Source: a virus | Taxonomy: Duplodnaviria; Heunggongvirae; Uroviricota; Caudoviricetes | Direction: 5' to 3' (one strand) | IMG/VR virus record: IMGVR_UViG_2526164632_000015 | Location: 1 to 12,112 of that record | Length of the DNA: 12,112 bases | Part shown: positions 1 to 12,112 of the stretch, piece after piece | Position numbering within the stretch: the stretch's first letter is position 1 | How the letters are laid out: the number at the start of each line of letters is the position of its first letter | Notes under the pieces: generated by a model | Seen by the model: the letters and a program-made list of their open reading frames with translations, nothing else | Told to the model about the DNA's origin: nothing | Database searches by the model: none | Position numbers and translations under genes: made by a program

Positions 1-2
1 GC

Positions 3-182
3 TATGGGCTGACAGTGACGGACTCGTGCCTCTTCACCAAACGCCTGGAGCGGGGCCGCTTCGTCTGGCCGGTCACCCGCGATGGAAAGGTTCACCTTAC
101 TCCGGCTCAGTTGTCCATGCTTCTAGAAGGCATCGACTGGAAGCACCCGAAACGAACGGAACGCGCTGGCATCCGCATATAA
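3..182 (+). CDS. tnpB: IS66-family TnpB (orf2), C-terminal fragment, 5' end cut by window edge
   Basis: Frame ending at TAA 180-182 translates to ...CLFTKRLERGRFVWPVTRDGKVHLTPAQLSMLLEGIDWKHPKR..., closely matching the C-terminus of the complete TnpB at 10123-10470 (...CLLTKRLERGRFAWPSARDGKVFLTPAQLAMLLEGIDWRQPKR...). Confidence 0.85.
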   Translation, partial: YGLTVTDSCLFTKRLERGRFVWPVTRDGKVHLTPAQLSMLLEGIDWKHPKRTERAGIRI

Positions 183-201
183 CCCGTTGTAAAGTGAGGA
201 T

Positions 202-1773
202 ATGGACACCTCACTTGCTCATGAGAATGCCCGCCTGCGGGCACTGTTGCAGACGCAACAGGACACCATCCGCCAGATGGCGAAATACAACCGCCTGCTC
301 TCACAGCGGGTGGCGGCTTATGCTTCCGAAATCAACCGGCTGAAGGCGCTGGTTGCGAAACTGCAGCGCATGCAGTTCGGTAAAAGCTCAGAAAAACTTC
401 GCGCTAAAACCGAACGGCAGATACAGGAAGCACAGGAGCGAATCAGAGCACTTCAGGAAGAAATGGCGGAAACGCTGGGTGAGCAATATGACCCGGTACT
501 GCCATCCGCCCTGCGCCAGTCTTCAGCCCGTAAACCGTTACCGGCCTCACTTCCCCGTGAAACCCGGGTCATCCGGCCGGAAGAGGAATGCTGCCCGGCC
601 TGTGGTGGTGACCTCAGTCCTCTGGGGTGTGATGTGTCAGAGCAACTGGAGCTTATCAGCAGCGCCTTTAAGGTTATCGAAACACAACGTCCGAAACTGG
701 CCTGTTGTCGGTGCGACCATATCGTGCAGGCAACAGTACCTTCAAAACCCATTGCACGCAGTTATGCCGGAGCGGGGCTTCTGGCCCATGTTGTTACCGG
801 GAAATATGCAGACCATCTGCCGTTATACCGCCAGTCAGAAATATACCGTCGCCAGGGCGTGGAGCTGAGCCGCGCCACGCTGGGGCGCTGGACAGGTGCC
901 GTTGCTGAACTGCTGGAGCCGCTGTATGACGTCCTGCGCCAGTATGTGCTGATGCCCGGTAAAGTCCATGCTGATGATATCCCCGTCCCGGTCCAGGAGC
1001 CGGGCAGCGGTAAAACCCGGACCGCCCGGCTGTGGGTCTACGTCCGTGATGACCGTAACGCCGGTTCGGAAATGCCCCCGGCGGTCTGGTTCGCGTACTC
1101 ACCGGACCGGAAAGGTATCCATCCACAAAATCATCTGGCCGGTTACAGCGGTGTGCTTCAGGCCGATGCTTACGGTGGTTACCGGGTGTTATACGAATCC
1201 GGCAGAATAACGGAAGCCGCGTGTATGGCTCATGCCCGGAGAAAAATCCACGATGTGCATGCAAGAGTGCCCACCGACATCACCACGGAAGCCCTGCAGC
1301 GTATCGGTGAACTGTATGCCATAGAGGCAGAAGTCCGGGGATGTACAGCAGAACAGCGTCTGGCGGCAAGAAAAGCCAGAGCTGCGCCACTGATGCAGTC
1401 ACTGTATGACTGGATACAGACTCAGATGAAAACACTGTCGCGTCACTCGGATACGGCAAAAGCGTTCGCATACCTGCTGAAACAGTGGGATGGCCTGAAC
1501 GTGTACTGCAGTAATGGCTGGGTGGAAATCGACAACAACATCGCAGAGAACGCCTTACGGGGAGTGGCCGTAGGCCGGAAAAACTGGCTGTTCGCGGGTT
1601 CCGACAGCGGTGGCGAACATGCGGCGGTGTTGTACTCGCTGATCGGCACATGCCGTCTGAACAATGTGGAACCAGAAAAATGGCTGCGTTACGTCATTGA
1701 GCATATCCAGGATTGGCCGGCAAACCGGGTACGCGATCTGTTGCCCTGGAAAGTTGATCTGACCTCTCAGTAA
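202..1773 (+). CDS. tnpC: IS66-family transposase TnpC (orf3), intact, 523 aa
   Basis: 523-aa ORF with GAGGA Shine-Dalgarno upstream. It has an N-terminal coiled-coil-like region, a CxxC...CxxC zinc-ribbon (CCPACGG...CCRCD) and the conserved IS66 transposase core ([38 protein letters not shown]). About 70% identical in the C-terminal half to the copy B TnpC. Confidence 0.9.
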
Positions 1774-1803
1774 ATATCAATACGGTTCTGGCGAGCCGCT
1801 TAC
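1774..1803. repeat. Right terminal inverted repeat of IS66 copy A
   Basis: 30 bp between the tnpC stop and the terminal ...CGCTTAC; shares the AGAACCGTATTGA core with the copy B right end. Exact inner boundary of the repeat is uncertain. Confidence 0.6.
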
Positions 1804-1844
1804 GATACACCGTTATATTCAAATTGTTCTGTTTTCAGGAACAT
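1804..1844 (-). pseudogene. G: 5' remnant (13 codons) of lambda G-like tail assembly chaperone gene, cut by IS66 copy A
   Basis: Minus-strand ATG at 1842-1844 lies 18 bp downstream of the gpV stop and reads MFLKTEQFEYNGV before hitting the IS terminus at 1803. This matches my recollection of the lambda gpG N-terminus (MFLKTESFEHNGV...) and the expected V-G gene order. Confidence 0.7.
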
Positions 1845-1862
1845 CGCTTATCTCTCAGCTCT

Positions 1863-2609
1863 TTAGCCACCCGGCACATTATTAACGGTAATTTCAGCCA
1901 CCGCAGCAAACTGACCATTACCGGAAATCACAGGGATGCTGACTTTTCCATCCTTAACCCCCGTCACAGTAATCGTCATATCTTTCACGCTAATGGTGGC
2001 TTTTGATGGATCGGCGGAAATCGCCCTGAATGTCTTATCCGTTGCATTTTCCGGTTCCACAGTAACGGTCAGGGTGGTTGTTTTCCCTTTTTCAACCGTA
2101 CCTGTCGGCGTTACCTTAATCGCAGTGACCGGCGTAATTTTGCTGCGTTCTTCCGCTACAGAAGGTTTACCCACGTTAGTGACTTTCACCGTGCGGGTGA
2201 TCACTTCTTTCGCCGTCACGGCCTTACCGATACTGCTGACCCAGCCACGAAACACATCCACCGTGCCATTCGGAAAACGGATTTTATAGGCCCGGACATC
2301 GCCGCTTTCAAACCAGCCTATAAGCCCTTTCTGGCCTTCCTCTCCCGGTTTCCAGGCCAGTGTAAAACTGGTATCACCTGCAGATTTCTGTCCCTGCCCG
2401 GTCGCGCTCCAGTCCGCGTCTTCATCATCCAGGTAGTTATCATCGTAGGATTCTGCCGTCATCTCGCCCGGCGTCAGATCCTTCACCTTAGCCAGTCGCT
2501 GCCAGTCATCATCTGACAACGGGTTGGCATAAGCATCATCCTTGCCGGTGTACACCCATAGTGTGGTGCCGGAACCTTTCACCGGCTCAAGAGGATTTGG
2601 TATTGCCAT
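1863..2609 (-). CDS. V: Major tail protein (lambda gpV homologue) with C-terminal Ig-like domain
   Basis: 248-aa ORF. Motifs [59 protein letters not shown] and [40 protein letters not shown] match lambda gpV as I recall it. C-terminal ~90 aa is a beta-rich Ig-like region. Confidence 0.92.
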
Positions 2610-2616
2610 ATCGTCC

Positions 2617-3015
2617 TCACATCTCGTAGGTAATTTTCCACAGGAGATCTGCCGATCCCCACATCATAAACTCATCATCCCGGCGGTAGTCATACCCCTG
2701 AAGATTCATCTTCAGCAGTAACGCACTGAGGCCGGGAACCGCCTCCAGCGCAGGAAGGATTTTCTCTTCCATCCACATATCCAGTGCCGAGTCCGGTTCT
2801 TTTGCCCTGAGAAAAACTTCAATATGCAGTGTCGCCTCCCAGGTCCCCTCATCAACGAACTCGTCAGCAGCAGACGCATCAGTCAGGTAAACAGCAACAG
2901 CAGGCAGTTCCTGTTCATCAATAAAAACCGGGCGGCCGTCAAACCAGCTCACCCGCTCAGAAATATTGTCTTTCAGGGCAGACAGAACTGCCGTCCGTAT
3001 TTCACGGTGTTTCAT
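2617..3015 (-). CDS. U: Tail terminator protein (lambda gpU homologue)
   Basis: 132-aa ORF. Start [11 protein letters not shown], internal LHIEVFL and C-terminal GYDYRRDD...SADL...ITYEM match the lambda gpU pattern. Sits between Z and V as in lambda. Confidence 0.88.
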
Positions 3016-3027
3016 ACACCCTCCCTG

Positions 3028-3657
3028 TCATTTTCTTTTCAGCACCAGGCGTAACTGATGCGTCATGGCTTTCATCATCTGCGCCGGTAATTTTTCCCGG
3101 TACATCCGGTCCCGTTCACGTTCAAAAGTTTCTGCCAGCGGTCCGGCAGTCGGAATTTTCACCACTTCAATCGGCAGACGGTAGCGTTTCGGCCTCCCTT
3201 TGCTGTCAGCACCGGTGGACGATGGTGCCCACGGCATACGCTGCATCACATGCCAGCGTCCGTTAGCCAGCCGGGTGATAAAGGCGTCCGGGATCCGTCT
3301 TTTCCCCACAATCAGCACACTGCCGCCCCCTTTCTTGACCGAACGCTCGCCTTTCTTTCGTCGCTTTCTGCGGGAAAGCCGCACGCTGGCCGTCCCCAGT
3401 TTTATGGCGGGCAGATTACCGGTGTTGATGATGACCTTCGCATAAATCCTGTCTGCGCTAGCCCGTTGCAGGCGGATACGCTCACGGATGAGACGGCGCG
3501 GAACCGCCAGCTCCCTGGCAACCGAAGAGGCCGTTTTCGCGATGATGGACTCCGCCACACGGTTAAGTGTCGTGGCGGCAGCCCGGGGAACGGCACGGCG
3601 GTCAATTGCATCCAGATTTTTCATGGCCTGCGCCAGACCTTTTATTGCCATACTCAT
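3028..3657 (-). CDS. Z: Minor tail protein Z (lambda gpZ homologue)
   Basis: 209-aa ORF. MAIKGL..., LPAIKLG, RLSRRKRRKKGERS..KGGGSVLIVGKRRIPDAFI..LANGRWHVMQR track lambda gpZ closely. Confidence 0.88.
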   Translation of the reverse strand: MSMAIKGLAQAMKNLDAIDRRAVPRAAATTLNRVAESIIAKTASSVARELAVPRRLIRERIRLQRASADRIYAKVIINTGNLPAIKLGTASVRLSRRKRRKKGERSVKKGGGSVLIVGKRRIPDAFITRLANGRWHVMQRMPWAPSSTGADSKGRPKRYRLPIEVVKIPTAGPLAETFERERDRMYREKLPAQMMKAMTHQLRLVLKRK

Positions 3658-3935
3658 TCCTGTTCGACAAAAATCCGGGGTTTACCGTTGTACGTGTCAT
3701 AACGGGTCACCGTCAGTGTGCGCCCCGCAAACACAACAACATCATGACGGGCCGGACGGTACCGGGCTGAAAACACCACCAGTGACAACTGGCTGCCCGA
3801 AAGCGCCCCCATCTCCGCGGACTCTTCCTCCGGCATCACGTCATACACGACGCCGTTAATCTCCGCCTGTTTGCCCATCACCCGAACGGTCGCCCCGTCC
3901 ATCCGGCAACACATTCGCGTAAACAGATCAGACAT
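3654..3935 (-). CDS. Small head-tail joining protein (gpFII-position, head-tail attachment-like)
   Basis: 93-aa ORF in the position lambda FII occupies before Z; start overlaps the upstream gene by 8 bp. Assignment is by position and size only. Confidence 0.5.
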   Translation of the reverse strand: MSDLFTRMCCRMDGATVRVMGKQAEINGVVYDVMPEEESAEMGALSGSQLSLVVFSARYRPARHDVVVFAGRTLTVTRYDTYNGKPRIFVEQE

Positions 3936-4254
3936 TGATTTTTACCGCCACAGTGGCGCTGTTTGCAGGAGCATTTTCCCAGGCTACCCCCGCGGCCACC
4001 GCACCCTCTGCAGCCAGCTGCACAACCCCGTCCTTCAGATAAACCACCGCGCCGGACTGAATGTCGTCAGCAGACTGTTTGGGCAGAAGGAACACGCCTT
4101 CGGCAAAACCGTCACCGGCATCACCGGCAGGAATATCTGTAATGGCCACGGCCACCATACTGCCGACCACCACCGCAGCACCGCTCAGGATGGTCTGATC
4201 TCCGGCATTCACCAGTTCAATGGTGGTACCGTCCTGTACAAAATTTTTCGCCAT
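3928..4254 (-). CDS. Small Gly/Ala/Val-rich head protein, putative decoration/cement protein (DUF2190-like)
   Basis: 108-aa ORF with a good Shine-Dalgarno (GGAGAAA about 8 nt upstream of ATG) immediately after the capsid gene. Composition is beta-rich G/A/V. Function inferred from position and composition. Confidence 0.5.
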   Translation of the reverse strand: MAKNFVQDGTTIELVNAGDQTILSGAAVVVGSMVAVAITDIPAGDAGDGFAEGVFLLPKQSADDIQSGAVVYLKDGVVQLAAEGAVAAGVAWENAPANSATVAVKINV

Positions 4255-4270
4255 AATGCTGTTTCTCCGG

Positions 4271-4293
4271 ACAGCCCCTGTGGGGCTGTTTTT
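4271..4293 (+). terminator. Perfect 8-bp stem / 3-nt loop hairpin followed by T5 on the + strand
   Basis: ACAGCCCC-TGT-GGGGCTGT followed by TTTTT (4289-4293). Lies in the 86-bp gap between the capsid and decoration genes, directly upstream of the decoration gene's ribosome-binding site on the minus-strand mRNA. Confidence 0.4.
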
Positions 4294-4300
4294 CAGGCAT

Positions 4301-4318
4301 AAAAAAGCCCTTTCGGGC
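4301..4318 (-). terminator. Short GC hairpin with GAAA loop followed by U6 on the minus (coding) strand, just after the capsid stop
   Basis: Minus-strand reading is GCCC-GAAA-GGGC then TTTTTT (reverse complement of 4301-4306). Only a 4-bp stem, so at best a weak or partial terminator. Confidence 0.3.
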
Positions 4319-4340
4319 AGTGATTGTGATAACTCGGTTA

Positions 4341-6320
4341 TCAGGCCACCGACGAACGCACCAGCCCGCGCCAGTCAAGTGGTGCCACTCCGGCATCAAT
4401 ACGGATTTTTGTGGCAATGCCGTCAGTGGTGAAACCTTCCTGCTGATCAATGTATGGCGTGTCCACACCATCCAGCCAGGCCACTTCAATGGTGTCAGTG
4501 CCCTGTGCCGCCGCCAGATACCAGGTTTTCGGATCTGCCGCATCAAGACGCGCTTCTGCAATCACCTCAGCAAAGTTCTGGATGGGGTTAATGACACCGG
4601 CGTTTGCATCCGCCCCTTTCACACTGGCCGATTTGATGGTCTGGTTCGCCACCGTCTCCAGTGCCACCGGTACCAGCATAAAGGCCGGACGGATATTCAG
4701 GGCGCGATCGCCTTCTTTCTGCAGGCGCATCATCTGACGGGCCGCATCCAGTCCGGAAACGGAAATCCCACCGGTGGCAATATTTTTGTGATCGGCATGG
4801 AACAGCGCCTTACCGTCTGACAGTTTCGGGTTATCCGTCAGCACCTTGTAAACCAGGTCACCAATCGTTGCCTTCGCCGCACGCCCCATCTTCATCGGCA
4901 CGTCCACCAGCATATTCAGATCATCATTGATAATGGCCTGGCGGGTGATGGAGAAAATCTCCCCGTAAGTGGCCAGTGCAATGGTCTCCTTGCGATCTGA
5001 GGTGGTGATGTATTTATACTCCGCCCCCTCACGAACCTGGCGCAGAGAACCAAAACCGCCCATCCCCACGCGATACGCTGTTTTGAAGTCTGACAGGCGT
5101 CCCTTACGGGTCCACTTCTGGAAGGTTTCTTCTGATTCCTCCCAGCCCTGGATCAGCCCCTTGTTCGACACATCCAGCAGAATATTGCCAAAATCAGAGG
5201 TGCTGTGCGTCAGCGCCAGCCCGACCATCTGCATGGGGTTATAACTGGCCACCCCAATACCGCGCTCCGTCAGTGACATGCGAGCCCATTCACGCAGGGT
5301 CATCCCGTTATAGGCGTTATCCTTCTCGACATTTTCAAATCCGGCACGGGCCAGCATCGCCTGGCGGATCCCGTCCCCCACAAAATTGCCGTTTCCGGCA
5401 TAAATATGAGCCGGTGTATTTTTGTTGGTCGGCGAGGACTCCTTGCCCATTTCATTCAGCAGACGTTCACGGGCCATTTCCAGCGAACAGTCAGGATCAG
5501 CCACGCACTGTGCCTGAAGCGTCTGATAGCGACCGCCGAACATGGCAAACAGATCGTTAATGCCTGACATGCGGGCTTTCTGTTCTGCCATAACGCGGGC
5601 GCGAATGGTCGCCTCATCAGACACTGCCGGTACCGGTGATGGTTCTGTTACCGCCGGTGCAGGGATTGTCACTGTGGTATCACGCGGGGCACTGTTGTAT
5701 GGCTGCGTGATCATATTTCGGATGGATTCCGGCATCTTTTTAAATTCCTCTGTACGTTTTGACTGAATACATGCCATTGCCTTAACGGCTGGCGTCACCT
5801 GGTCTGCAAATCCGTGTGCCAGACACTCGGCACCGGACATCCAGGTCTCATCCGCCAGCATGGCGGCAATTTCATCGGTAGTTTTTCCGGTTTTCTGCGC
5901 ATATACCGGCACCATAACCGACTCAAGTTTGTCCAGACGTTCGGCATAAGTGCGCATTTTCTCCGCATCACCACCGCTGATCCCCCAGGGTTTATGGATC
6001 ATCATGAAGGCATTTTCCGGCATAATGACCGTGTCACCGGCCATCGCAATCAGGGATGCCATCGAGGCGGCAACGCCATCCACATACACGGTAATGGCCG
6101 CACCGTGATTTTTCAGGGCATTAAAAATGGCGATGCCTTCAAAGACATCGCCACCCGGTGAGTTGATGTGGAGATTAATGTGGGTGATATCACCCAGGGC
6201 ATTCATATCGCTGACAAACTGCTTCGCGGTAACTCCCCAGAAACCAATCTCGTCATAAATATAAATATCCGCCTCACCCTGACCACCCGCCTGCATCCTG
6301 AACCAGGATTTATTCTTCAT
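4341..6320 (-). CDS. Fused head maturation protease (ClpP-like) / scaffold-like linker / HK97-fold major capsid protein
   Basis: One uninterrupted minus-strand frame. N-terminal ~200 aa carries ClpP-type motifs (HINSPGGDV, VDGVAASMASLIAMAGD, MMIHKPWG). A charged, helix-prone linker follows, then a ~300-aa C-terminal capsid-like region. The longest ORF runs to 6512, but that extension overlaps the portal coding region; start chosen at M65 (ATG 6318-6320, MKNKSWFR...). Start codon is uncertain; 6296 is an alternative. Confidence 0.8.
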   Translation of the reverse strand: MKNKSWFRMQAGGQGEADIYIYDEIGFWGVTAKQFVSDMNALGDITHINLHINSPGGDVFEGIAIFNALKNHGAAITVYVDGVAASMASLIAMAGDTVIMPENAFMMIHKPWGISGGDAEKMRTYAERLDKLESVMVPVYAQKTGKTTDEIAAMLADETWMSGAECLAHGFADQVTPAVKAMACIQSKRTEEFKKMPESIRNMITQPYNSAPRDTTVTIPAPAVTEPSPVPAVSDEATIRARVMAEQKARMSGINDLFAMFGGRYQTLQAQCVADPDCSLEMARERLLNEMGKESSPTNKNTPAHIYAGNGNFVGDGIRQAMLARAGFENVEKDNAYNGMTLREWARMSLTERGIGVASYNPMQMVGLALTHSTSDFGNILLDVSNKGLIQGWEESEETFQKWTRKGRLSDFKTAYRVGMGGFGSLRQVREGAEYKYITTSDRKETIALATYGEIFSITRQAIINDDLNMLVDVPMKMGRAAKATIGDLVYKVLTDNPKLSDGKALFHADHKNIATGGISVSGLDAARQMMRLQKEGDRALNIRPAFMLVPVALETVANQTIKSASVKGADANAGVINPIQNFAEVIAEARLDAADPKTWYLAAAQGTDTIEVAWLDGVDTPYIDQQEGFTTDGIATKIRIDAGVAPLDWRGLVRSSVA

Positions 6321-7811
6321 GCTGGCTGTCGGTGGCCTGCTGACGCTGTTGTTCAGTTCCGGCACTGTTGCCTCCTTTGTCGTTGACGGGGTCAGTATCA
6401 AAGACCAGCCCCAGTCTGCTGTTTTCATCAATTTCAGCCTTGCGGCGACGTTTGACCTCATCCGGATTGCGCCCGCCGGCACGCACCCAGTCAGATTCTG
6501 TCGCTGCACCACCCCGGATCTGAATTCTCCAGGCTTCAGCTTCCTTAACCGGGTCGATCCACGGCATCACCGGACCGGAATACGTCGCGTTATATAGCGT
6601 TTTCATCTCCACATCCGCCGGAATTTTCAGCAGACCTGCCGCAACCACCATATTCAGCCATGTCCGGTACACCGGACGGGTTACCGCGCCAATAAAACAG
6701 TCCTGCAGGATCAGGTAACCATCCGTGGACTCGACCAGCTCCTGCCGCTGGGCACTGTAGGTGCCGTTATAGTTACGCGCCGCACTGGAAAAACTCAGAC
6801 GACTGCCCGCTGCCACTGCACGCAACTGGCCGTTGCGGAAAGTTTCAAGGTTGGGATTGGGACGGTCTGATTTGACCATGCCGATATCCTCGCCCTTGCG
6901 CAAATCGTCATAAATAATACCCGGGGTGATATGGACTTCCCGGTCGGTTTCTTTGATCCCCGGCTCTTCATAGTCCTGCCCGTCACCTTTACGGATATAC
7001 AGTCCCAGCGCCGCGGCAATACGCGCCGCAGTGAGTTCCGCATCCTCATACTCCTTAAGGGCACTGATCCGCATCAGCACCCCCGATAACATGGATGAGC
7101 CTCGCGTCTGATGCAGACGACGAGTGAACTTCAGGTGGATCATTTTTCCGGCAGCGATTTCTTTCGTATCACTCTGCCGGCCGCTGACCGGATAATTTTT
7201 ATAAACCAGATATTTTTCGGTCTTCCCCACTCATCAAGAAAAACCCCCTGATTCAGTCCGGCGGATTCATCAGTGCGCATGGGAACAAAATCCGGCTCCA
7301 TCGCCTCAAGCCAGAATGGCACTCCCGCCGTCCGTTCCAGACCGTTTCCCGCACCACTGACCATCTGCGCAAACACTTCACCATCCCGCAGCCAGGTCCG
7401 CAGCAGTAAACGTTCAAGCACGGGACGGGTATACTGCCCTGTCACATCCGGACTCACGGACCACTCAGCCCACAACCGGCGGATATCCGCAGCCAGCTCT
7501 GCCGCCATTTCCCCGTTTTTTCGTAATGGCTGAGGCTCCACAATAATTCCCCTGGCACCAATCACCCGCTCTTCCAGCTTGTCAAACACACCAATCACCA
7601 GGTCATGATTGATATCCAGAAAACGGGCCTGCTCCCGCAGGGAAACCGCACCGTATTTACTGAGCTGATCAGCAGAGCGATTTTCCCGCCGGGCTTTATG
7701 TGTCCGGGTCGGTTTCACCGCCTCATAGGCCATGATTAACGCCCTTGAACGCAGTCTGGCTGCTTTCCAGCCGGGGGAAAACACGCCTATCACATCATCA
7801 ATAATTGCCAT
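6310..7811 (-). pseudogene. Phage portal protein, split by a single-base frameshift (or homopolymer sequencing error)
   Basis: Two overlapping minus-strand ORFs (7811-7140, 223 aa; 7230-6310, 306 aa) sum to a typical ~530-aa portal and sit between gpW and the protease/capsid gene. The frame switch must lie between 7233 and 7200, where there is an A5 run on the coding strand (T5 at 7213-7217 on +). Adding one A would read ...LDEWGRPKKYLVYKNYPVSG... Confidence 0.75.
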
Positions 7812-8047
7812 TAAAACCTCGCCAGTTTAAATCCTGGTTTTCCCCGCCTGCGGCTCACCATCGCGGCAAGCCTGCGTTCCCACTCCTGACGTCCGGCGCG
7901 GATCTGAGAAAGGCTTTCCAGCGTCAGTTGCTGTCCGTTGAAGGTGACAGACTTCCCCTCCAGTACGGCCATTTCCGCTTCACGGTACCGCTGTATCATT
8001 TCTCTGGCTTCTTCTGTGCTCACAACCAGCCTCCTGATGTTATCCAT
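7811..8047 (-). CDS. W: Head-tail joining protein (lambda gpW-like)
   Basis: 78-aa ORF between terminase large subunit and portal, as W is in lambda. C-terminus ...RRRGKPGF resembles the lambda gpW C-terminus (...RRRGPAGF) as recalled. Stop overlaps portal start (TAATG). Confidence 0.65.
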   Translation of the reverse strand: MDNIRRLVVSTEEAREMIQRYREAEMAVLEGKSVTFNGQQLTLESLSQIRAGRQEWERRLAAMVSRRRGKPGFKLARF

Positions 8048-9640
8048 GGATTATCTTCCGCACGCTCCGTCCGCAGTTTTTTCTTCCGGCGACGGCGTTT
8101 TTCTGCCCCGGCCGTCAGTTCCGGGGATACCGTTTCACCAGAACGCTCCTGCGGGAAGACGAGCCACGTTTCCCGCTGTGCCCAGTCCGGTGCGGAGGGC
8201 CAGCGGATCTTTTCGTAACCATGCAGAACGGCAAGCGCATCCGCATAAACCAGCAGGTCAAACGCCTCGTTAGCTCCCCTGCCCGGTTTTCGCCATTTTC
8301 CGTCACTGCCGCGCTCTTCATAGGTCAGCTCATCGTAAAACCATCGCCCCAGCCAGTCGGGAAAGTGGATATAGTTCGGCCCTGGTGTGTCACGCCACAG
8401 GGCATTATTTACACGGTCCTTAAACGCATCCGTCTGAACCAGCCACAGCGCGACATCGCCACTGGCTCTGGCACGGCGGGCACTTCTGCCGGTATTATCC
8501 GGGAAGGTACGGTTAATCAGCCTGTCACGGCGAAGTCCATCCCCCTTGAACAGAAACACCCTGTTGCCCAGTCCGTCACTCCGGCAACGACACCAGAAAC
8601 GATAGGCGTTATCTGTCACCCCGGCTTCCCCTCCCGTATCCACCGCCATGGCCATCAGACGCATGCGCACATCCGGATCAGAAGCCAGCGGCCATGTTTT
8701 ATGGAACACATCCGTCAGCAACAAATCCCAGTCCTCCGGATATGCCGCCGGATCAACCGGCAGACTTTCACCGTTGGGACTGCAGCGCAGTGAATGCCGG
8801 ATGTTATAGCGATCAACAATCCAGCGTTCCCCCTGCTCTCCGTATCCGGTGATCTGCACAACAAAACGGCGATTTTTACCGCCCTGTACGTCAACCGTTG
8901 CCTCAATAAAACGCACACCATCCGGCACAGATCGCCGGGGAAACGGCTCGGCACGCTGTTCAAGCAGTTCACTTTTACGCTGTTCCGTGGCTGAACGGGG
9001 CAGATAGGGGCGTCCGATATCGGTGTTCACCACCGCTTTCAGGGTCTCTTCACTGCCGGTTCGCTCATACTCTTCTTCTGCCGCCAGCAGTTTAAAAATC
9101 AGTTGTTCCCAGGTCTGAAACGCCGCAGCCGGCCCCTCCATCCAGAATGACGCAATCCGGGAATTTCGTGGCGTTCCGGTGATACTGCCGTCCGCCACCG
9201 CCCGTTCACCTTCACGAAGCCAGATCCCTTTGTTATTCAGTTCGCGTTTCTGCTCAGGGGCAATCAGCCCGCGACAATGCGGACACATCAGACGGGCAGC
9301 CTGACCGGCAGCCACAAAATCCGGGTTATTCCGGTATCCGGTCATGTTATCCATCACCGGCTGAAAATATTCCCCGCAGTGCGGACACGGCCAGTACCAC
9401 CGGCGGCGGTCTCCCCGGTTATACAGTGACAGGATCCCCGTTGTTGGCGGTGCCTCATGTGCGCCGCCACAGCGCCATTTGGTGTCAGTGATATCCCGCC
9501 CCGGCGAACTCTCGACCAGGGTCATCCCCGAGGACATAAAGGTGGTGGTACGCTTTGATGCCAGGGTGAAGGCATCCCCTTCCCCGTCCACGTTTTCAGG
9601 GAAACGGTCATAATCCGTCAGCGCCACACGACGGTAATCC
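8020..9640 (-). pseudogene. A: Terminase large subunit (lambda gpA family), N-terminally truncated by IS66 copy B
   Basis: About 540 codons of open frame with a CPHCGE...CPHC zinc-binding segment and a C-terminal region (IHFPDW..., NEAFDLLVYADALAVL) resembling lambda gpA. Typical gpA proteins are ~640 aa; the frame runs straight into the IS terminus at 9641. The ORF track extends it to 9723 only because the frame stays open by chance inside the IS. Confidence 0.8.
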
Positions 9641-9672
9641 GTAAGCGTCGTCTCAGCACCGTCTGGCAGATC
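9641..9672. repeat. Left terminal inverted repeat of IS66 copy B
   Basis: GTAAGCGTCGTCTCAGCACCGTCTGG...; matches the right-end reverse complement at positions 1-8 and across the CAGCACCGT region. Imperfect. Confidence 0.55.
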
Positions 9673-9721
9673 CTGAAATTCCTGAGAGAATAGTGGACAC
9701 CAAATATGGTGGACGCTATCC

Positions 9722-10126
9722 ATGAAATCATTAACCGCAGTGCGTAAAAAAAGCCCTAATTATCCCGTTGAGTTCAAAATCAAAATGGTTGAACTCTCGC
9801 ATCGACCAGAGATCTCCGTAGCGCAACTCGCTCGTGAGCATGGGATCAACGATAATTTGCTGTTCAAGTGGCGCCAGTACTGGCGCGAAGGAAAACTACG
9901 TCCTCCTTCAACAACAGAAAACAACGTGCCTGAGCTGCTCCCGATAACACTTGATGCCGAAGATGTTGTCCCTACAACCTCCCCCCGGTCACAACCTGTA
10001 GCTGCTGCGACACCTGAATCACTCAATATCAGCTGTGAAGTGACGTTCCGGCACGGATCACTCCGTCTGAATGGTGCCATCAGCGAAAATATCCTGAACC
10101 TGCTGATACGGGAGCTCAAACGTTGA
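9722..10126 (+). CDS. tnpA: IS66-family TnpA (orf1), small helix-turn-helix protein
   Basis: 134-aa ORF, first gene inside the IS, followed by tnpB with overlapping stop and start. The true start codon may be internal. Confidence 0.75.
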   Translation: MKSLTAVRKKSPNYPVEFKIKMVELSHRPEISVAQLAREHGINDNLLFKWRQYWREGKLRPPSTTENNVPELLPITLDAEDVVPTTSPRSQPVAAATPESLNISCEVTFRHGSLRLNGAISENILNLLIRELKR

Positions 10127-10470
10127 TCCCATTACCATCAGGGACAAAGATCTGGCTGGTCGCTGGCATCACCGATATGAGAAACGGCTTCAACGGCCTG
10201 GCGGCAAAGGTGCAGACGACGCTGAAAGACGATCCGATGTCAGGTCACGTTTTTATCTTCCGTGGGCGTAATGGCAGTCAGGTAAAGCTCCTCTGGTCTA
10301 CCGGCGATGGACTGTGTCTGCTGACCAAACGGCTGGAGCGCGGCCGCTTCGCCTGGCCGTCAGCCCGGGATGGCAAAGTGTTCCTCACACCGGCACAGCT
10401 GGCGATGCTGCTGGAAGGTATCGACTGGCGGCAGCCTAAAAGACTGCTTACGTCCCTGACTATGTTGTAA
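10123..10470 (+). CDS. tnpB: IS66-family TnpB (orf2)
   Basis: 115-aa ORF (MIPLPSGTKIWLVAGITDMRNGFNGLAAKV...). Apparent TTG start overlaps the tnpA TGA stop (TTGA), suggesting translational coupling. Confidence 0.8.
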   Translation: MIPLPSGTKIWLVAGITDMRNGFNGLAAKVQTTLKDDPMSGHVFIFRGRNGSQVKLLWSTGDGLCLLTKRLERGRFAWPSARDGKVFLTPAQLAMLLEGIDWRQPKRLLTSLTML

Positions 10471-10518
10471 GCCTCTTTATCCTGGTCGACGCTGAATGAG
10501 CCTGGTAATATACCCGGT

Positions 10519-12058
10519 ATGAGCAGCTCACTTCCTGACGATATCAATGCACTGAAACGTCTCCTTGCCGAACAGGAGGCGCTGAACCGTGCCCTGCTGG
10601 AAAAGCTGAACGAGCGTGAACGCGAAATAGACCATCTGCAGGCACAGCTGGATAAGCTGCGCCGGATGAACTTCGGCAGCCGCTCCGAAAAAGTCTCCCG
10701 TCGTATCGCACAGATGGAAGCTGACCTGAAGGCACTTCAGAAAGAAAGTGATACCCTTACCGGTCGGGTTGACGACCCGGCCGTGCAGCGCCCGCTGCGT
10801 CAAACCCGCACCCGCAAACCGTTCCCCGAATCACTCCCCCGCGATGAAAAACGGCTGCTGCCGGCAGCATCATGCTGCCCGGAATGTGGAGGCTCACTGA
10901 GCTATCTGGGTGAGGATGCCGCCGAACAGCTGGAGTTGATGCGCAGCGCCTTCCGGGTTATCCGGACTGTACGTGAAAAAGCATGCCTGTACTCAGTGCG
11001 ATGCCATCGTGCAGGCCCCCGCGCCTTCACGGCCCATCGAGCGGGGTATCGCAGGACCGGGGCTGCTGGCCCGCGTGCTGATCTCAAAGTATGCAGAGCA
11101 CACCCCGCTGTACCGCCAGTCTGAAATGTACGGCCGCCAGGGCGTGGAGCTGAGTCGTTCACTGCTGTCGGGCTGGGTGGATGCATGCTGCCGGCTACTG
11201 TCACCGCTGGAAGAAGCGCTTCAGGACTATGTGCTGACTGACGGTAAGCTCCATGCTGATGACACGCCTGTCCCGGTGCTGTTGCCAGGCAATAAGAAAA
11301 CGAAGACCGGGCGGTTATGGACCTACGTTCGTGACGACCGTAACGCCGGGTCAACGCTGGCGCCGGCGGTGTTGTTCGCTTACAGCCCGGACAGAAAAGG
11401 CATCCATCCGCAGACCCATCTTGCGGGGTTCAGTGGTGTACTGCAGGCGGATGCATACGCCGGGTTCAACGAGCTGTACCGGGATGGCCGGATAACGGAA
11501 GCCGCCTGTTGGGCTCACGCCCGCCGTAAAATCCACGATGTGCACGTTCGCACCCCGTCAGCCCTGACGGAGGAAGCGCTGAAACGGATCGGCGAACTGT
11601 ACGCCATCGAGGCAGAGATAAGGGGAATGACGGCGGAGCAGCGCCTTGCCGAACGTCAGTTGAAAACGAAACCGCTGCTGAAATCCCTGGAAAGCTGGCT
11701 GCGTGAAAAGATGAAAACCCTGTCGCGACACTCAGAACTGGCGAAAGCGTTCGCATACGCCCTGAACCAGTGGCCGGCGCTGACGTACTATGCAGATGAT
11801 GGCTGGGCTGAGGCGGACAATAACATCGCTGAAAATGCGTTGCGGATGGTCAGTCTGGGCCGCAAAAACTACCTGTTCTTCGGTTCGGATCATGGAGGAG
11901 AGCGGGGAGCGCTGCTGTACAGCCTGATCGGGACGTGCAAACTGAACGGAGTGGAGCCAGAAAGCTACCTCCGCTATGTCCTTGACGTCATAGCCGACTG
12001 GCCGATAAACCGGGTCGGCGAACTGCTCCCCTGGCGCGTAGCACTGCCGACTGAATAA
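10519..12058 (+). pseudogene. tnpC: IS66-family transposase TnpC (orf3) with a +1 frameshift at an A5 run (10976-10980)
   Basis: ORFs 10519-11124 and 10973-12058 together align colinearly with the intact copy A TnpC. Removing one A from the run restores ...[20 protein letters not shown]..., parallel to copy A ...[20 protein letters not shown]... Confidence 0.8.
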
Positions 12059-12095
12059 CACATCCCCGTCAATACGGTTCTTGCTGCACGCTTAC
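12059..12095. repeat. Right terminal inverted repeat of IS66 copy B
   Basis: ...CAATACGGTTCTTGCTGCACGCTTAC; shares the AGAACCGTATTGA core with the copy A right end. Confidence 0.6.
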
Positions 12096-12112
12096 CATCA
12101 AACATCGTGGTT

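Follow-up and report, generated by a model that had tools for sequence, protein, structure and literature searches.

Large terminase subunits of the lambda gpA type have a two-domain architecture, and in lambda the gene order runs from the small terminase through the large terminase (terL) and the W-like head-tail adaptor to the portal. The extreme N-terminus of lambda gpA binds the small subunit, and a large subunit broken between its two Walker motifs (A and B) should be unable to hydrolyse the ATP for translocation. In pathogenic E. coli it is common for lambdoid prophages to have morphogenesis genes crippled by IS insertions. Defective lambdoid prophages inactivated by IS insertions occur in EHEC and EPEC strains, for example in the Sakai prophage pool, and we take them to be comparable to the prophage described here.

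Elements of the IS66 family carry the genes tnpA, tnpB and tnpC in this order, with the domains HTH_Tnp_1, TnpB_IS66 and LZ/zf/DDE_Tnp_IS66, between ends that read GTAAGCG and CGCTTAC. The family members ISEc22 and IS679 reportedly feature in work by Han et al. from 2001, in J Bacteriol 183:4296. An 8-bp target duplication is the reported signature of IS66 transposition, and mismatched 8-bp flanks are the accepted signature of recombination between two IS66 copies (PMC6778807). In the Agrobacterium pAt15955 deletion, homologous recombination of this kind left a single IS66 copy with hybrid flanks (PMC6778807).

The window analysed here, a stretch of 12,112 nucleotides, is the reverse orientation of the complete draft contig AIHC01000031.1 (assembly GCA_000250255.2; 12,112 bp), bar one N: position 4 is A in the window and N in the public contig record. 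The window falls into three blocks. Positions 1-1803 hold the right two-thirds of an IS66-family element (the end of tnpB and a 523-aa transposase), which ends in ...GCCGCTTAC at 1803. Positions 1804-9640, read on the minus strand, are taken up by head and tail genes of lambda-like type, comprising those for the major tail protein, U, Z, a head-tail joining protein, a ClpP-protease/capsid fusion, the portal, the W-like adaptor and the large terminase. Positions 9641-12095 hold the other IS66-family element, which shares about 70% identity with the first and runs from GTAAGCG to CGCTTAC. The contig starts inside IS679 and stops 17 nt past ISEc22, and both of its ends therefore sit in repeats, IS679 at one and ISEc22 at the other. 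The features discussed below are as follows.

1..1803, plus strand: IS679, IS66 family, truncated at the contig start, identity to ISEc22 about 70%
8020..9640, minus strand: 3' relic of terL (gpA type), from the last base of codon 168 through codon 707 (the final one) and the stop
9633..9640, no strand: target octamer GGTAATCC, left copy of the target-site duplication (TSD) of ISEc22, found at both IS ends in strain 12A
9641..9723, minus strand: IS-derived leader (27 codons) of a 567-aa ORF, from an ATG inside the ISEc22 left end outward into terL
9641..12095, plus strand: ISEc22, IS66 family, from three-ORF Pfam matches and the PGAP name in 12A
9722..10126, plus strand: ISEc22 tnpA, 134 aa, HTH_Tnp_1 (PF01527)
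10123..10470, plus strand: ISEc22 tnpB, 115 aa, IS66 Orf2-like (PF05717)
10519..12058, plus strand: ISEc22 tnpC, DDE transposase (PF13007, PF13005, PF03050 and PF13817)
12096..12112, no strand: contig tail of 17 nt, CATCAAACATCGTGGTT, identical to the right flank of the ISEc22 copy between yeaL and yoaI

Two complete genomes of the same clone, those of the E. coli O111:H2 strain 12A (CP077479) and of FDAARGOS_1059 (CP066032), were found to be 100% identical to the window over 7800-9640. Over 1804-12095 (10.3 kb), the window differs from 12A by no substitutions and by three 1-nt indels in A/T homopolymers, at 7213 in the portal gene, at 10976 in ISEc22 tnpC and at 4301 in an intergenic region. 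As a result the portal gene appears as two ORFs (7140-7811 and 6310-7230), and so does the gene for the ISEc22 transposase; the indels are probably errors of sequencing. In AIHO01000029 and in four Logan runs, which are assemblies with intact terL, the same 223-aa fragment of the portal was observed, and the portal difference may be a real T5/T6 polymorphism.

We found an ORF of 567 open codons on the minus strand at 8020-9723. The nuclease domain GpA_nuclease (PF20454) matched residues 190-508 of this ORF over its full length (profile 1-294, E 4.9e-83), whereas GpA_ATPase (PF05876) matched residues 28-168 with only the part from 127 to 247 of its 247 profile positions (E 5.6e-37). The complete PF20454 and partial PF05876 matches, together with an intact homologue assigned to phrog_15, support the gpA-type assignment. 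Residue 28 is encoded by the codon that spans 9640/9641, so that the similarity to terminases starts at the IS terminus: base 9640 of the window is where similarity to intact terminases begins, and the terminus GTAAGCG adjoins it at 9641. E. coli AR_0013 has an intact allele of 2124 bp, which encodes 707 aa. All 539 residues of the relic aligned to residues 169-707 of that protein, with one substitution (R518C). The ORF, the Pfam matches and the alignments thus agree with the original prediction that a gpA-like frame runs from 8020 up to GTAAGCG at 9641 and that an IS66 copy lies inside terL, and aligning the frame to full-length terminases placed the end of the homology at residue 169, at window position 9640. 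The prediction that about 540 of some 640 codons remain held for the first number, 539 codons being present in the window; the intact gene has 707, however, so that 168 codons are absent and not about 100. A natural gpA start near 9640 was considered and rejected, as the proteins of intact relatives are 707 aa long and the match to the Pfam ATPase profile begins in its middle.

The nuclease domain is still present in full in the relic, and so are the CPHCG zinc motif and VALTDYD (residues 173-179), the Walker B-like strand. The P-loop of Walker A, GPARTGKT (residues 77-84), is absent from the window and lies upstream of the break at codon 168/169. In an alignment to lambda gpA, GPARTGKT corresponded to the KSARVGYS region and VALTDYD to the Walker B VDVAGYDE. 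The break therefore divides the ATPase centre, with Walker A on one side and Walker B on the other, and the terL of the window encodes no polypeptide in which the ATPase centre is complete with both motifs. By the same alignment, the part absent from the window also spans the extreme N-terminus, which bears out the earlier expectation that the missing part comprises the N-terminal ATPase and small-subunit region. Judged by its motifs, the terL of the window is a pseudogene and not a functional gpA-type terminase. In 12A, the identical stretch is annotated by PGAP as a pseudogene missing its N-terminus, under the name 'terminase gpA endonuclease subunit'.

Compared with lambda, the locus shares the two-domain terminase architecture and the lambda-like gene order, and the intact homologue can be aligned to lambda gpA from end to end at 29% identity. 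It differs in that the homologue has 707 aa instead of 641 aa and a canonical GxxxxGKT P-loop, and in that the gene of the window is a pseudogene split after codon 168. The relic showed 99.3-99.4% protein identity to the large terminases of Stx-converting phages, namely VT1-Sakai, CP-1639 and several phages of the Stx2a type, so that this O111:H2 cryptic prophage has its head module in common with Stx phages.

To what extent the gene has lost sequence can be read from clone-mates whose assemblies continue past the element. In 12A, the left junction reads ...GGTAATCC followed by GTAAGCG, and the right junction reads CGCTTAC followed by GGTAATCCGAAGAAG, a perfect 8-bp TSD. Extended further, the right junction reads CGCTTAC followed by GGTAATCCGAAGAAGAAAATACAG, which is the terL sequence of AR_0013 with the octamer duplicated. 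The empty site of AR_0013 reads ...cgacGGTAATCCgaagaag, and its uninterrupted terL sequence across the site is cgacGGTAATCCgaagaagaaaatacag. The octamer spans the last base of codon 168 to the second base of codon 171. The same insertion, with the same left junction and a perfect 8-bp TSD, was observed in 12A, in FDAARGOS_1059 and in the sister draft AIHE01000008, an assembly of the same project that crossed ISEc22 correctly. Directly beyond the IS in 12A lies a 5' terL fragment of 170 residues with no differences from the intact allele; it reads 39 codons on into the IS and is annotated by PGAP as a pseudogene 'missing C-terminus'. It is accompanied by a small-terminase gene encoding a 158-aa DUF1441 protein (PHROG 141 'terminase small subunit', E 5.6e-65). 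FDAARGOS_1059 and AIHE01000008 are arranged like 12A, with the 5' terL fragment and then the small-terminase gene, and in an intact relative this gene lies directly upstream of terL (L002 8341-8817, phrog_141, E 5.6e-65). Among 535 complete E. coli genomes in which the region occurs, 533 have the site uninterrupted, and the insertion is thus specific to the O111:H2 clone; the uninterrupted site in intact relatives that the original prediction proposed to recover is thus at hand, in AR_0013 among others.

These comparisons indicate that the ISEc22 event is a simple insertion that splits terL, with nothing deleted. The 5' terL fragment is, by analogy with the clone-mates, expected to be retained in the window's own strain, and the window shows neither this fragment nor a small-terminase gene because the draft contig ends just past the IS. 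The earlier view that the IS removes the N-terminal part of the gene is not upheld, since the same insertion in clone-mates has its TSD and codons 1-170 beyond it, while the window stops at a contig end. The accompanying remark that no small terminase gene is visible is correct for the window but reflects the contig boundary, as the gene lies beyond the IS in 12A and FDAARGOS_1059. As grounds for abandoning its claim, the original prediction had named a flank from 12096 onwards that is not terminase, combined with a locus that never held a complete gene; the flank is indeed not terminase sequence, yet the locus clearly once held a complete gene.

The element itself is 2455 bp long in the window and 2454 bp in 12A. 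Its left inverted repeat starts at 9641 and its right one ends at 12095; the terminal repeats are imperfect and begin with GTAAGCGT, with the first 8 nt identical and 15 of the first 22 positions matching. The set of tnpA, tnpB and tnpC, the terminal repeats starting from GTAAGCG and the near-identity to a named ISEc22 all place it in the IS66 family. The copy in the window showed no substitutions relative to the 12A copy over 2454 bp, and the latter is labelled by PGAP as 'IS66-like element ISEc22 family transposase'; the name used here follows this label and not ISfinder. The tnpC of the window is present as two ORFs (10519-11124 and 10973-12058) owing to an extra A in the A-run at 10976, which is probably a sequencing error; in 12A the protein is intact with 512 aa. 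In gene order, domains and ends the element therefore matches the described family, and the 8-bp target duplication at the terL insertion is found in the clone-mates. The differences are the 1-nt homopolymer frameshift in tnpC and a right TSD copy that is absent from the window, and otherwise nothing substantial. With a 73-nt end probe, ISEc22 was found at 5-6 sites per genome.

In the window, ISEc22 is flanked by two different 8-bp sequences, GGTAATCC at its left end and CATCAAAC at its right, and the 17-nt tail contains no terminase sequence and no repeat of GGTAATCC. When the IS end plus tail was searched as one sequence, an exact match was found at one place in 12A and at one in FDAARGOS_1059. 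This place is an ISEc22 copy between yeaL (DUF441) and yoaI, the flank of which includes the TSD CATCAAAC; in 12A this copy has its own perfect TSD of that sequence. The prophage copy and the yeaL/yoaI copy are direct repeats, separated by 0.93 Mb in 12A and by 0.88 Mb in FDAARGOS_1059. The 17-mer was absent from the roughly 9.5 kb that follow the IS in 12A and from the prophage locus of FDAARGOS_1059. A reading of the tail as prophage DNA joined by a local one-ended deletion was rejected, the 17-mer being absent from the prophage loci L001, L002 and L016 and confined to the yeaL/yoaI site.

The absence of a 5' terL part and of a small-terminase gene from the window would also be explained if the IS insertion, or a deletion at its right end, had eliminated from the genome both terL codons 1-168 and the gene for the small terminase, and one-ended deletions do occur beside IS679, the other IS66-family element of the prophage. 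We consider this very unlikely. The sequence past the IS is not downstream prophage DNA, given the absence of the 17-mer from the 12A and FDAARGOS_1059 prophage, but a chromosomal site 0.93 Mb away with its own IS copy and TSD, and a one-ended deletion would not stop exactly at the TSD of another copy; moreover, the 5' fragment is kept in all clone-mates whose assemblies read through the IS. That the junction is real, the prophage copy having recombined with the yeaL/yoaI copy and the 5' terL part and small terminase having been moved off the relic, is still unlikely, but it finds more in its favour. The left flank GGTAATCC and the right flank CATCAAAC each match one parental insertion with its own perfect TSD in 12A, such mismatched 8-bp flanks being the accepted mark of IS66-IS66 recombination (PMC6778807), and the window strain has at least one other real IS-associated change. 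Since the two copies are direct repeats, a real terC/IS/yoaI junction would have to stem from a tandem duplication or from a circle that was excised, since a viable deletion would give yeaL/IS/terN and not the junction observed; in 12A coordinates the order in the window is 3.357 Mb, then the IS, then 2.426 Mb. The junction would accordingly take the form of an IS-flanked tandem duplication of about 0.93 Mb, or be part of a more complex rearrangement. It rests, however, on no more than the final 17 nt of a draft contig that also has three homopolymer errors. In a comparison that covered the prophage and yeaL/yoaI copies only, and in which a collapsed repeat would give the majority allele, both distinguishing sites (724 and 2081 of 2454) were of the prophage type; this argues weakly against recombination, confining the switch to the last 373 bp, which is about one read length. 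The Agrobacterium pAt15955 hybrid is similar in being a single IS66-family copy with each 8-bp flank matching a different parental insertion, but there it is a deletion product, whereas the hybrid of the window is of opposite polarity, as expected at the junction of a duplication or circle, and depends on the contig end. This polarity, together with the 17 nt at a draft contig end, makes an artefact the more likely origin of the hybrid.

We therefore consider it highly probable that a simple ISEc22 insertion split terL, that the 5' half is hidden by the contig end and that the tail is most likely an artefact. The 17-nt tail as a contig-end assembly artefact is most likely, and is favoured over an IS-IS recombination junction. 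Reads of all ISEc22 copies would pile up on the repeat, the consensus would enter one of the competing flanks, and the assembly would then stop. It counts against an artefact that this IS was crossed correctly in AIHE01000008, where assembly thus succeeded. A terC/ISEc22/yoaI-flank junction that is real, whether from a tandem duplication of about 0.93 Mb or from another large IS-mediated rearrangement, is distinctly improbable. If it were real, the two terminase halves would lie physically apart in the chromosome of a DEC12-type strain or of a subpopulation of the culture.

The frame of 567 codons extends past the relic into the IS, and it could in principle be an expressed IS-terminase fusion, a free-standing gpA nuclease with a partial ATPase in a new role. 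Its frame is uninterrupted from the ATG in the IS left end, and the PGAP label of the relic names an endonuclease subunit. A promoter scan of 9500-10000 on both strands, however, detected no promoter-like site for such a fusion, and no Shine-Dalgarno-like sequence was found ahead of the ATG. The leader is the reverse complement of the IS left end and nothing more, the P-loop is missing and PGAP flags the gene as a pseudogene. An expressed fusion is hence extremely unlikely, and the leader is probably an annotation artefact, an accidental open frame. The ATG of tnpA (plus strand, 9722) and that of the ORF (minus strand, 9723) overlap in the palindrome CATG at 9721-9724, which explains why gene callers report a 'terminase' that starts inside the IS.

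The prophage carries further lesions. The right end of IS679 adjoins codon ~14 of the tail chaperone gene G, and beside it the window lacks 4339 bp of the tail genes of 12A, namely most of G, followed by T, the tape measure, M and L. The same IS679/gpG junction is present in the independent assembly NMLS01000094, so that the window strain differs structurally from 12A by a 4.3-kb deletion that it has in common with this assembly, and a further rearrangement in the window strain is for this reason possible. Three states of the IS679 site were observed. In FDAARGOS_1059, IS679 is a simple insertion in the tail gene K with the TSD AATAATCC (L016 2091-2098 and 4803-4810). In 12A, the left flank is the same, about 240 bp are lost on the right and the right flank is TGATATCG (L015 11029). 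In the window (1796-1830) and in NMLS01000094, the further 4339 bp are lost and the flank is GATACACC in gpG codon ~14; in NMLS01000094 the junction lies on the minus strand of L013, 127 nt from the contig end. These nested one-ended deletions at the right end of IS679 look like IS-mediated adjacent deletion, occurring twice or stepwise.

A third IS66-like element, of the ISCro1 family, was found in 12A just beyond the tail-fibre gene of the same prophage (L015 1-1045), and the 12A prophage is bounded or interrupted by three different IS66-family members. ISEc22 and IS679 are inserted in the prophage in the same orientation and at similar octamers (GGTAATCC and AATAATCC, with TAATCC common to both), while the octamer of the yeaL/yoaI copy is CATCAAAC; three sites are too few for calling a target preference. 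The prophage resembles the Sakai-type prophages in being lambdoid with Stx-phage-like head genes (terL at 99.4% protein identity to VT1-Sakai) and in its inactivation by several IS insertions and deletions. It differs from them in the elements involved, which here belong to the IS66 family (ISEc22, IS679 and ISCro1) instead of being IS629, and in its host lineage, O111:H2.

Taken together, the most probable course of events would start with an ancestor of the O111:H2 (DEC12-type) clone, in which ISEc22 inserted into terL of a lambda-like prophage and duplicated the octamer GGTAATCC. The insertion would have split the ATPase domain, leaving the Walker A P-loop and the N-terminus beside the small-terminase gene, while the remainder, with the Walker B strand, nuclease domain and portal-binding C-terminus, would lie across the element at a distance of 2.45 kb. 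The N-terminal piece, which is expected to bind the small subunit, would thereby be parted from the nuclease and from the part that binds the portal. Packaging should be powered by neither piece, and the prophage would be unable to package its own DNA. The window, being a whole draft contig that ends at the far edge of a multi-copy repeat, would show only the 3' piece of terL, its last 17 bases probably having been drawn from the flank of another ISEc22 copy by repeat collapse at the contig end. We infer the packaging defect from the loss of motifs. The earlier statement that the lesion makes the prophage packaging-defective on its own is in this sense supported for the split of terL, and the prophage is also broken elsewhere.

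The insertion in terL is already annotated, as both halves are PGAP/RefSeq pseudogenes in two complete genomes, and it is nothing new in kind. Its biological weight is small, the locus being an ordinary IS-disrupted prophage gene. The case shows that 'deletions' inferred where a draft contig stops at a multi-copy IS are not to be trusted, and that the few bases past a repeat at a contig end may come from another copy of the repeat. For the O111:H2 clone, the terL insertion together with the nested IS679 deletions is a possible lineage marker.
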